Shown here piece after piece: positions 18,172 through 58,157 of a stretch of DNA of 64,000 bases. The position numbers and the translations under genes were made by a program. The stretch comes from Candidatus Omnitrophota bacterium (GTDB taxonomy: Bacteria; Omnitrophota; Gorgyraeia; Gygaellales; Profunditerraquicolaceae): assembly GCA_028716965.1 (NCBI GenBank), contig JAQUOV010000004.1, forward strand, positions 8,377-72,376. Reading direction: 5' to 3'. Position 1 is the stretch's first letter. Each line of letters begins with the position of its first letter. Below the pieces are notes generated by a model. That model did no database searches. It worked only from the letters and a program-made list of their open reading frames with translations, and was not told where the DNA came from.

Positions 18172-18252
18172 ATGAACCCCTCGCCTTCTGTAAATTTAAC
18201 TATTGAAGCCATGGGGTTTAATGAGCTGACTAAGGAAGAAGGTGCGGGATGA
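18172..18252 (+). repeat. Family A junction element, short copy (glyA / dCMP deaminase)
   Basis: ATGAACCCCTCGCCTTC...GAAGGTGCGGGATGA; supplies the start codon of the next gene. Confidence 0.9.
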
Positions 18253-18710
18253 AAAAGAGCAGAACTATACATAAGCGCCCTACGTGGGATGAATATTTCC
18301 TGGAGATGGCAGGCTTGGTTGCCAAAAGGTCAACCTGCCTGCGCCGCTCTGTTGGTGCGGTATTGGTAAGAGAAAAAAGAATTTTGGCTACCGGTTATAA
18401 CGGCGCTCCCAGCGGTTTGAAGCACTGTGTTGAAATCGGCTGTATACGCCAGCAGTTAAAGATACCTTCCGGAGAACGCCATGAATTATGCCGCGCCTTA
18501 CATGCAGAGCAGAACGCGCTTATCCAGGCCTGCCTGCACGGCATAAGCGTAAAAGGCGCAACTTTATATGCCACTAATCAGCCGTGCGTTATCTGCGCCA
18601 AGATGCTCATTAACGCCGGGATAAGGGAGATCGTAATTGCCGAAGGCTACCCGGACAAAATGGCGATGAGCTTCTTAAGGCAGGCAAAGATAAGAATAAG
18701 GAAAATATGA
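18249..18710 (+). CDS. dCMP deaminase / ComEB family
   Basis: [35 protein letters not shown]. Confidence 0.93.
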
Positions 18711-19009
18711 ACCCCGCACCTTCTTTAAATTCAATAATGTACCATGCGTATCTTCTTAAAAGTAAAAAGAATGATACTTTTTATATTGGATATACAAATA
18801 ATATTGAAAGAAGGTTAAAAGATCATAGCTCCGGGATAGTTGAATATGCAGGGAAATATGTGCCTTGGGAAATAGTGTATTATGAAAGCTCTATTTCCTT
18901 GGTTGATGCTAATCAAAGGGAGAGATCTCTTAAATCTTTTGGGAGGGCATATTCAGGTTTAAAACTTAGAATTAAAAATAGCTTGAATAAGAAAGAAGGT
19001 GCGGGGTGA
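18707..19009 (+). mobile_element. Family A full-length element: GIY-YIG gene bounded by 16-bp perfect inverted repeats
   Basis: ACCCCGCACCTTCTTT (18711-18726) / AAAGAAGGTGCGGGGT (18992-19007); same termini as five gene-less copies. Confidence 0.8.
18737..19009 (+). CDS. Small GIY-YIG nuclease (UPF0213/YhbQ-like)
   Basis: YHAYLL...FYIGYTNNIERRLKDH...PWEIVYYE...ANQRERSLK; the start may instead be ATG 18707. Confidence 0.9.
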   Translation: MYHAYLLKSKKNDTFYIGYTNNIERRLKDHSSGIVEYAGKYVPWEIVYYESSISLVDANQRERSLKSFGRAYSGLKLRIKNSLNKKEGAG

Positions 19010-19473
19010 AGTGTCCGTTTTGCGGATATAAAGAGGATAAGGTCGTGGACTCCCGCGCTACAGCCGAAGAATCGGCAGTCAGGCGCAGAAGGGAATGCCT
19101 GAAATGCGGCAAGCGTTTCACTACTTATGAGTATGTTGAAGAGGTCTCTTTGTTAGTGATCAAGAAAGACGGCCGCAGGGAGGCCTTTGACCGTAAAAAG
19201 ATCTTAGCCGGTATAATCCGCGCCTGCGAAAAGCGTCCGGTGAGCGTGGAAAAGATGGAAGGGGTAGTTGTCCAGGTTGAGCATGCCATCCAGAAGAAAA
19301 GTGACCGCGAGGTTTTGTCCAGCAGGATAGGGGAGCTGGTTATGGAGAAGCTTAAGCAGATTGATGATGTTGCTTATGTGCGCTTTGCCTCGGTCTATAG
19401 GCAGTTTAAGGACGTGGGGCAGTTTATGGTGGAGTTGAGGGATATTTTGGGCAAAGATAAGAAGAAGAAATAG
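19006..19473 (+). CDS. nrdR: Transcriptional repressor NrdR
   Basis: KCPFC..DKVVDSR..RRRRECLKCGKRFTTYE, ATP-cone, VAYVRFASVY. Confidence 0.97.
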   Translation: MKCPFCGYKEDKVVDSRATAEESAVRRRRECLKCGKRFTTYEYVEEVSLLVIKKDGRREAFDRKKILAGIIRACEKRPVSVEKMEGVVVQVEHAIQKKSDREVLSSRIGELVMEKLKQIDDVAYVRFASVYRQFKDVGQFMVELRDILGKDKKKK

Positions 19474-47715: not shown

Positions 47716-47792
47716 ACCTCGCACCTTCTAAGTATCCGACTATTAAAGGTATGAGGTTGAATGGATTTATTAAAGAGGAAGGTGCGGGGTGA
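47712..47792 (+). repeat. Family A junction element, short copy
   Basis: ATGAACCTCGCACCTTC...GAAGGTGCGGGGTGA; overlaps the upstream TGA and the downstream GTG. Confidence 0.92.
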
Positions 47793-49882: not shown

Positions 49883-49956
49883 ACCCCGTATCTTCTCTAT
49901 TTAACTATTGAAGCCCATACGGGTTAAAGAATTGGTTAAGAATGAAGGTGCGATGA
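49879..49956 (+). repeat. Family A junction element, short copy
   Basis: ATGAACCCCGTATCTTC...GAAGGTGCGATGA. Confidence 0.88.
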
Positions 49957-55374: not shown

Positions 55375-55451
55375 ACCCCGCACCTTTTTTAATTTAGTTA
55401 TTATAAGGTGCAGGGGTTAGAATTCATGAATAAAGAGAAGGTGCGGGGTGA
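55371..55451 (+). repeat. Family A junction element, short copy
   Basis: ATGAACCCCGCACCTT...GAAGGTGCGGGGTGA. Confidence 0.92.
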
Positions 55452-58018: not shown

Positions 58019-58157
58019 ACCCCCGCACCTTCTGTAAATTCAAGTATCAGGAGAATACGGCTTAATGATTTAAATAAGAATGAAGGTTCCGGGATAAGTT
58101 GGTTTGAGGTTAAGATTTAAGATTTGAATGAATTCATAGGAGGAAGGTGCTGGGTGA
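58015..58157 (+). repeat. Family A junction element, extended copy with a duplicated right end
   Basis: ATGAACCCCCGCACCTTC..GAAGGTTCCGGG (58082-58093)..GAAGGTGCTGGGTGA (58143-58157). Confidence 0.85.

Follow-up and report, generated by a model that had tools for sequence, protein, structure and literature searches.

A GIY-YIG gene between inverted repeats at the start of nrdR

The window, a stretch of 64,000 nucleotides from the genome of a Candidatus Omnitrophota bacterium (G000 below), contains a small GIY-YIG nuclease ORF (18707..19009, +; identified by Pfam PF01541, AlphaFold and a frame check) between the dCMP deaminase gene and nrdR. The ORF belongs to a full-length element of 295 bp (18712..19006, +), which has no counterpart at 36 of 43 orthologous junctions and whose ends fold together (z -5.9). 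These ends are perfect 15-bp inverted repeats with an imperfect extension (ATTCAA/TTGAAT), the left one, CCCCGCACCTTCTTT, at 18712..18726 (+) and the right one at 18992..19006 (+). Outside them stand the left (18708..18711, +) and right (19007..19010, +) copies of a duplicated target, TGAA, as seen when empty alleles (...ATGA[AG]...) are compared with filled ones. An earlier note on this DNA had described a perfect 16-bp inverted repeat, and its arms (18711-18726 and 18992-19007) are exact reverse complements; one base of each is part of the duplicated TGAA, the arms proper being 15 bp long. We set the boundary at 18712-19006 with a 4-base target duplication because filled alleles read ATGA[A/G]-element-TGA[A/G]. 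The bases inside the ends are shared with other copies, as that note had also proposed, TAAATTCAA being present at both 18726 and 58035, and the 12-mer CCCCGCACCTTC has 9 matches in the window at up to 1 mismatch compared with 0.30 expected. The gene is indeed AT-rich, with 33% GC in the ORF versus 49-51% in glyA, dcd and nrdR.

The TGA of the left copy terminates the dCMP deaminase gene and shares bases with the ATG at 18707 from which nrdR originally started. This host ATG is in frame with the nuclease, which is 100 aa long if read from the captured host start and 90 aa if its own ATG (18737) is used. The nuclease stop codon is the right duplicated TGA and overlaps a new nrdR GTG, the G of which, together with a Shine-Dalgarno-like GAAGG motif, lies in the right terminal repeat.

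Insertion on start codons

Generally, the insertion point is the TGA[A/G] of ATGA or GTGA start codons, with 4 bases duplicated, and copies on host start codons share one orientation. The left target copy preserves the upstream stop, and in 5 of 6 cases in the window a long upstream ORF ends at the left TGA. The right end closes with GAAGGTGCGGG[G/A], the last base of which forms GTG or ATG with the duplicated TG behind the GAAGG motif, and the host gene survives since the right end supplies both a Shine-Dalgarno-like sequence and a new start. ORFs of at least 60 codons are opened by 13 of 14 right ends in G000 and 44 of 54 in the related genome G023, compared with 25% of 10,804 background sites, and the G023 right ends without such an ORF are mostly internal to nested or tandem copies. 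The host start is in frame with the nuclease in 17 of 25 full elements on start codons, and in all 11 start-codon elements that lack a start codon themselves (from about four independent lineages). We infer that selection retains insertions in which the host gene is spared and the nuclease is expressed.

Full elements of the window type were found at nine different host gene starts, namely nrdR, a CDP-alcohol phosphatidyltransferase, a geranylgeranyl reductase-family gene (in a record titled Planctomycetales), gpsA, an epimerase, an RND permease and three ORFs without a family match.

Empty sites and target duplication

That the element splits the dCMP deaminase-nrdR junction was borne out by its empty orthologous sites. 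We compared the junction across the genus, at 43 loci in 42 genomes, and the 36 empty ones either have an ATGA stop/start overlap (25) or a spacing of -1 to +4 (11). Three junctions hold the full element, in G000, G019 (79% identical protein) and G020 (55%), and the other four hold a 73-bp copy (1), a 14-bp remnant (1) or unrelated repeats (2). In a dcd+nrdR tree the filled alleles are dispersed, with empty sisters around them, a pattern that suggests repeated gain at the nrdR start. The two unrelated fillings are hairpin repeats in G023 and G022 (loci L073 and L095; that of G022 is SRM-like), so this junction attracts several repeat families.

The same nrdR start is filled in the non-sister genomes G000, G019, G020 and G017, as might follow from a homing-like process in which the nuclease cleaves either empty alleles or DNA that enters the cell, host homologous recombination copies the element, and new sites are reached rarely, by microhomology repair. 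The first 90 nt of nrdR, 94% identical between G019 and G000 versus 80% for the rest (no other of the 41 comparisons has so large an excess), agree with this; however, these 90 nt are more conserved anyway and the upstream side has no excess. Homing also sits badly with dozens of unrelated target genes, exact ends, target-matched duplications and a protein without an extra DNA-binding domain, and we consider it unlikely. As a separate observation, the excess identity of G000 and G019 at the nrdR start (L082 compared with 19006-19140 of the window) possibly reflects co-conversion with the element.

Empty and filled alleles were established at six window sites. In a wider sample (G000 and about 290 kb of G023, in 20 regions picked around known right ends), 38 of 56 paired elements, some mis-paired ends included, have the same 4-mer on both sides, compared with 17.5 after shuffling, and 14 of the 38 identical pairs are other than TGAA (TGAG, TAAA/TTTA, TTAA). 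The 4-base duplication is a true target duplication. Since copies of 26 bp insert at TGAA or TAAA within other copies, what is targeted is a short sequence rather than the start codon as such.

Among 54 full elements, a duplication of at least 3 bp is present in only 25. At least 17 of the 54 lie inside larger hairpin arms, and 16 of those have no duplication of 3 bp or more; they are mostly of other end types, and the duplication is usually absent at the inner repeat. The larger left arm reads ATGA..hairpin..GCCGAATTTGA and the larger right arm TT[CT]AATTCG..hairpin..CTCATT, in the interval that separates a stop codon from the following ribosome-binding site (L177, L180, L183, L186, L188, L190, L031, L034 and L265; gene-less forms L312, L320 and L327). 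These arms may represent a second repeat family that acts as a hot spot; alternatively, they may be the real termini of the types concerned.

Contigs of four DNA runs, in which rare variants are dropped, contained neither a precise empty-allele joint nor a circle junction at 97% likeness or above. An exact skip of 299 bases in two DNA runs at 85% likeness is not counted as excision because it probably comes from a related species.

Gene-less copies of the element

Five copies without the gene had been noted from 18172, 47712, 49879, 55371 and 58015, and all five are present. Three are 73 bp long: one where the dCMP deaminase gene begins, after glyA (18177..18249, +), a site that is empty in most of the genus and carries independently placed copies in G044 and G059; one at the start of a glycosyltransferase gene (47717..47789, +), whose ATGAA site is empty in 3 of 3 relatives; and one at the start of a PfkB-family kinase gene (55376..55448, +). 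The others are a degenerate 70-bp copy at the start of a GT4 glycosyltransferase gene (49884..49953, +) and a 135-bp copy at the start of a SIS-CBS gene (58020..58154, +). The kinase, GT4 and SIS-CBS insertions likewise correspond to an empty ATGAA site in 3 of 3 relatives, and the host genes from 47717 onwards were named by Pfam.

Genome-wide there are 17 gene-less copies in the 1.85-Mb assembly. An nhmmer profile built from six short copies finds 18 distinct loci, among which are the full element and a doubtful 48-bp hairpin; the same mini-element profile gives 0 hits in the reversed genome. A single nuclease of the window's subclade is present in G000. Copies range from 26-bp perfect hairpins through about 73, 94 and 124 bp up to 295 bp, and they occur nested as well as in tandem arrays joined by TGAA. 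Folding is better than in shuffled sequences for 2 of 5 minis, and no better for the two degenerate minis and the 135-bp copy.

The short copies had been taken for internal-deletion derivatives of the full element, a proposal that our comparisons do not support in its simple form. The middles of six copies of about 72 bp do not align to the gene; p<0.05 was reached in 2 of 24 comparisons, at inconsistent places, and a gene-derived middle is thus unsupported. In 4 of 6 such copies the middle matches a second right end.

Several unusual copies were encountered. A gene-less copy in L321 (G093) seems to join a window-type left end to the right end of another type. In G000, 147 bp separate a left and a right end with imperfect flanks at C7:120083-120229, which the mini profile missed. 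A second hairpin family (GGGGACGGTTCTC / GAGAACCGTCCCC) is nested in miniature elements of G023 (L208:1362-1491, L209:11050-11163, L211:3743-3860 and L213:1328-1454) and also occurs near a Y1 transposase in L284.

The nuclease clade and its end types

The nuclease is a single-domain GIY-YIG protein of 90-100 aa (PF01541, E 3e-12), for which NCBIfam has no model. Its AlphaFold model (pLDDT 88.5) has a Slx1/UPF0213-like fold, and the best structural matches are prokaryotic Slx1-like / UPF0213 (YhbQ) stand-alone GIY-YIG proteins (PDB 1zg2, 1ywl). Slx1 and UPF0213 enzymes cut at junctions of single- and double-stranded DNA. A homodimer was predicted with a score of 0.44 versus 0.01 for the best control (runs agreeing 100%, pLDDT at least 71), which marginally passes a mark attained for 20 of 30 solved homodimers and for 1 of 23 monomers; in this model the subunits would pair via strand 45-54 and the clade-invariant R78, the predicted interface covering residues 45-57 and 78-82.

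Homologues were gathered from 26 GTDB loci, 41 relatives and 251 class genomes (the top 30 loci and 40 further of about 350), giving 135 proteins, of which 122 entered the tree after truncated ones, those below 70 aa and L017 were left out. The window protein falls in a Slx1-like GIY-YIG clade of 51 members (support 0.97, or 0.92 on residues 1-80 only). Close homologues should be flanked by the inverted repeat if the two form a system, and by motif search matched ends were found in 47 of the 51 members; among the remaining four, two have degenerate ends and two a left end only.

The ends also co-vary with protein phylogeny: eight end types follow protein subclades. On the protein tree the end type changes 8-9 times for 54 elements, counted with a ninth type outside the clade (minimum 8), compared with about 37 times after shuffling, and this holds when the columns that overlap the repeat are removed. 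The tracking shows co-inheritance rather than recognition, because the types were defined from the same data and kin share labels. Between the arms of 64 elements, 12 changes are compensatory compared with 3.7 after shuffling, and one-sided changes (24) outnumber them.

For 10 of 11 pairs the dN/dS relative to the window copy is 0.09-0.22, and one pair is saturated; judging from these sequence comparisons the nuclease gene is under purifying selection. The earlier note had suspected that the window copy is decaying. Six of its positions do differ from all 9 closest relatives, but the 16 residues conserved in at least 90% of the clade are all intact, including Y5, Y16, R26, H30 and E62. Within the subclade, the G019-type protein comes nearest to the consensus. 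The suspicion loses force because the catalytic core is intact, and decay of this copy is possible.

Viral proteins gave 3 hits only, 30% identical to the nuclease. The 67 exact left-end matches in viral contigs were read as chance, none having a matching right end at element distance except for two short local hairpins. Rfam searches on 20 loci returned only tRNAs and no intron.

Evidence on the mobilising enzyme

If the nuclease moves the repeats, the two should occur together, and across the class genomes extra left ends are present in 7 of 8 genomes with the cognate subclade versus 15 of 243 without it (Fisher p 1e-7, overstated by kinship). Among the 41 relatives, at least 5 right ends occur in 4 of 4 genomes with the cognate nuclease versus 5 of 37 without. 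No cognate nuclease was found in these copy-rich genomes, G023 (66 right ends, 93% complete), G005 (16), G018 (11), G022 (8) and G035 (6), or in G208, which has 9 left ends. They could have lost the autonomous copy, or its assembly could have failed.

Copy-rich genomes without the nuclease also suit another explanation, in which an unseen DDE transposase would mobilise the ends as a MITE family, with the nuclease gene travelling as a passenger, as in a transporter IS. Terminal inverted repeats with 4-bp duplications are a DDE signature, and the element shows it. However, where a right end was found at 30 left-end loci, it lies at most 325 bp from the left end (24 of 31 left ends were paired by script, most others by eye), and the only long pairs are nuclease elements. 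The refuting case, a DDE or HUH gene that bears these ends, was looked for with seven families in five copy-rich genomes of MAG quality, and no such gene was found. The six DDE families (PF01609, PF00665, PF13701, PF12762, PF13358 and PF02371) included none common to the five genomes, and 0 of 6 hit loci had paired ends. It is also improbable that one passenger would stay under purifying selection across eight end types, and we regard a DDE transposase with a passenger as quite unlikely.

Y1_Tnp is the only searched family found in all five copy-rich genomes. Paired family ends were found at 0 of 15 Y1 loci examined (of 19 matches), and two of these loci hold one lone 10-mer with 1 mismatch.

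From the above, the element is real and mobile, and a GIY-YIG-driven IS/MITE pair is the best reading of it. We give a probability of about 0.65 to a minimal mobile element, bounded by inverted repeats and making a short target duplication, whose GIY-YIG nuclease probably moves both full and gene-less copies.

Comparison with known systems

The pairing had been thought to have no characterised counterpart, which is not the case: the Ssn/NTS system exists, and the text available from Chenal et al. 2025 (PMC11893778) already proposes that it is IS-like. As in the window, a single-domain GIY-YIG gene of about 90 aa (Ssn, cd10448) is flanked there by a many-copy repeat, and each homologue is paired with its own repeat variant, an IS-like layout on which its authors remark (PMC11893778). 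According to the same text, the binding of SsnA to a hairpin on ssDNA is sequence-specific, and the cut falls a few bases 5' of the hairpin (PMC11893778). On the other hand, mobility is a hypothesis in that text, which reports no target duplication, empty sites or start-codon targeting (PMC11893778), and in the window's element two arms bracket the whole gene. Ssn membership is not claimed, since NTS has 0 matches in the window at up to 3 mismatches. The window clade (support 0.92-0.97) stands apart from a clade of four SRM-flanked proxies for Ssn (0.99), one of which is 38% identical to the window protein over 72 aa.

A third explanation builds on this likeness: a host-domesticated Ssn-like restriction nuclease would cut incoming ssDNA at the repeats, as SsnA does in Neisseria according to the available text (PMC11893778), and replication slippage or an HUH (RAYT) enzyme would account for the spread of the repeats. 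The 26-bp REP-like hairpins and the Y1_Tnp genes of all five copy-rich genomes are in keeping with it. Against it, the gene is patchy, AT-rich and at changing loci instead of being conserved in place, and none of the 15 Y1 loci has paired family ends. HUH transposases, to our knowledge, make no target duplication, and duplications are present here. We regard a domesticated restriction nuclease as very unlikely.

With DDE-type IS and their MITEs the family shares terminal inverted repeats, a short duplication, autonomous and non-autonomous size classes and tandem or nested insertions; unlike them, the window's element has no DDE transposase, its whole autonomous-type unit is 260-330 bp, and it lies in one orientation on start codons. 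REP/REPIN with RAYT and IS200/IS605 (HUH Y1) are similar in their hairpin repeats, in having one gene copy and many short ones, and in target-oriented insertion, but the window's enzyme has another fold, duplications are present (the 38 of 56 paired elements above) and the local Y1 genes do not have these ends. GIY-YIG homing endonucleases differ in that the element has no intron (Rfam, 20 loci) and no extra domain and sits in nine different host genes, and Penelope-like elements, in which a reverse transcriptase is fused to GIY-YIG, differ from a 295-bp element with one 90-aa ORF only. Non-intron GIY-YIG insertions in CPR rRNA genes also occupy scattered sites and are judged by their authors not to be spread by homing, but the accessible part of that paper describes no ends, duplications or miniature partners (PMC11270868). 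The Slx1-like / UPF0213 (YhbQ) stand-alone proteins are the closest structures, yet the available text treats them as repair proteins (PMC1564403). In the literature searched, mostly without subscription papers, no GIY-YIG element with target duplications or start-codon capture is described.

A possible mechanism and its implications

The Slx1/UPF0213-like fold, the predicted homodimer and the hairpin binding and cutting of SsnA led us to propose a model of stem recognition. The two arms would pair on single-stranded or cruciform DNA, and a nuclease dimer would recognise the arm stem by sequence. Nicking would occur at the base of the stem, by analogy with Ssn near its hairpin and Slx1 at junctions. 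The dimer would then make a 4-nt staggered cut in the target, and joining might proceed via host polymerase (fill-in) and ligase, or by direct 3'-OH attack. The GIY-YIG domain is a hydrolase, and we know of no strand-transfer precedent for it; every step of this chemistry is conjectural and we put it forward with clear doubt.

In its widest form, the reading is a new class of bacterial transposable element, in which a dimeric GIY-YIG protein of about 90 residues would act as transposase, read its own paired ends (at least eight end/enzyme specificities), land on start codons, borrow the host start and give the host gene a new one. We hold this to be possible, at somewhat less than even odds. 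If the enzyme proves to be the mobiliser, the element would form a new transposon class that resembles an IS/MITE pair and Ssn/NTS in its working; DDE and HUH genes with these ends, and NTS flanks, were absent from the sequences searched. If autonomous, it would be the smallest autonomous transposable element known to us.

GIY-YIG would then be a further transposition chemistry beside those of the DDE, HUH, serine/tyrosine and IS110 enzymes, within a unit of less than 300 bp. Such an element would be direct evidence for the idea that Ssn-type gene/hairpin pairs are selfish elements, would account for numerous stand-alone genes of uncultured bacteria that are labelled 'Slx1-like repair', and would show one way in which operon genes can have their ribosome-binding sites and start codons rewritten while no gene is lost. 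The eight paired end/enzyme types are candidate programmable nucleases.

Other GIY-YIG genes

Besides the clade described above, the genus conserves another GIY-YIG gene in synteny, a stand-alone paralogue that has no repeats and falls outside the clade (L042, L043, L046, L047, L053-L056 and L301); it is likely the housekeeping counterpart. More distant GIY-YIG genes of about 85 aa lie directly 5' of tRNA genes (L003, L009, L013, L015, L016, L041 and L044), with a duplicated tRNA 5' end upstream that is often split by a CCGCC..GGCGG hairpin. Many proteins of 190-360 aa start with the same domain (P0004, P0009, P0010, P0022, P0027 and others) and may be fusions or read-through into host genes.
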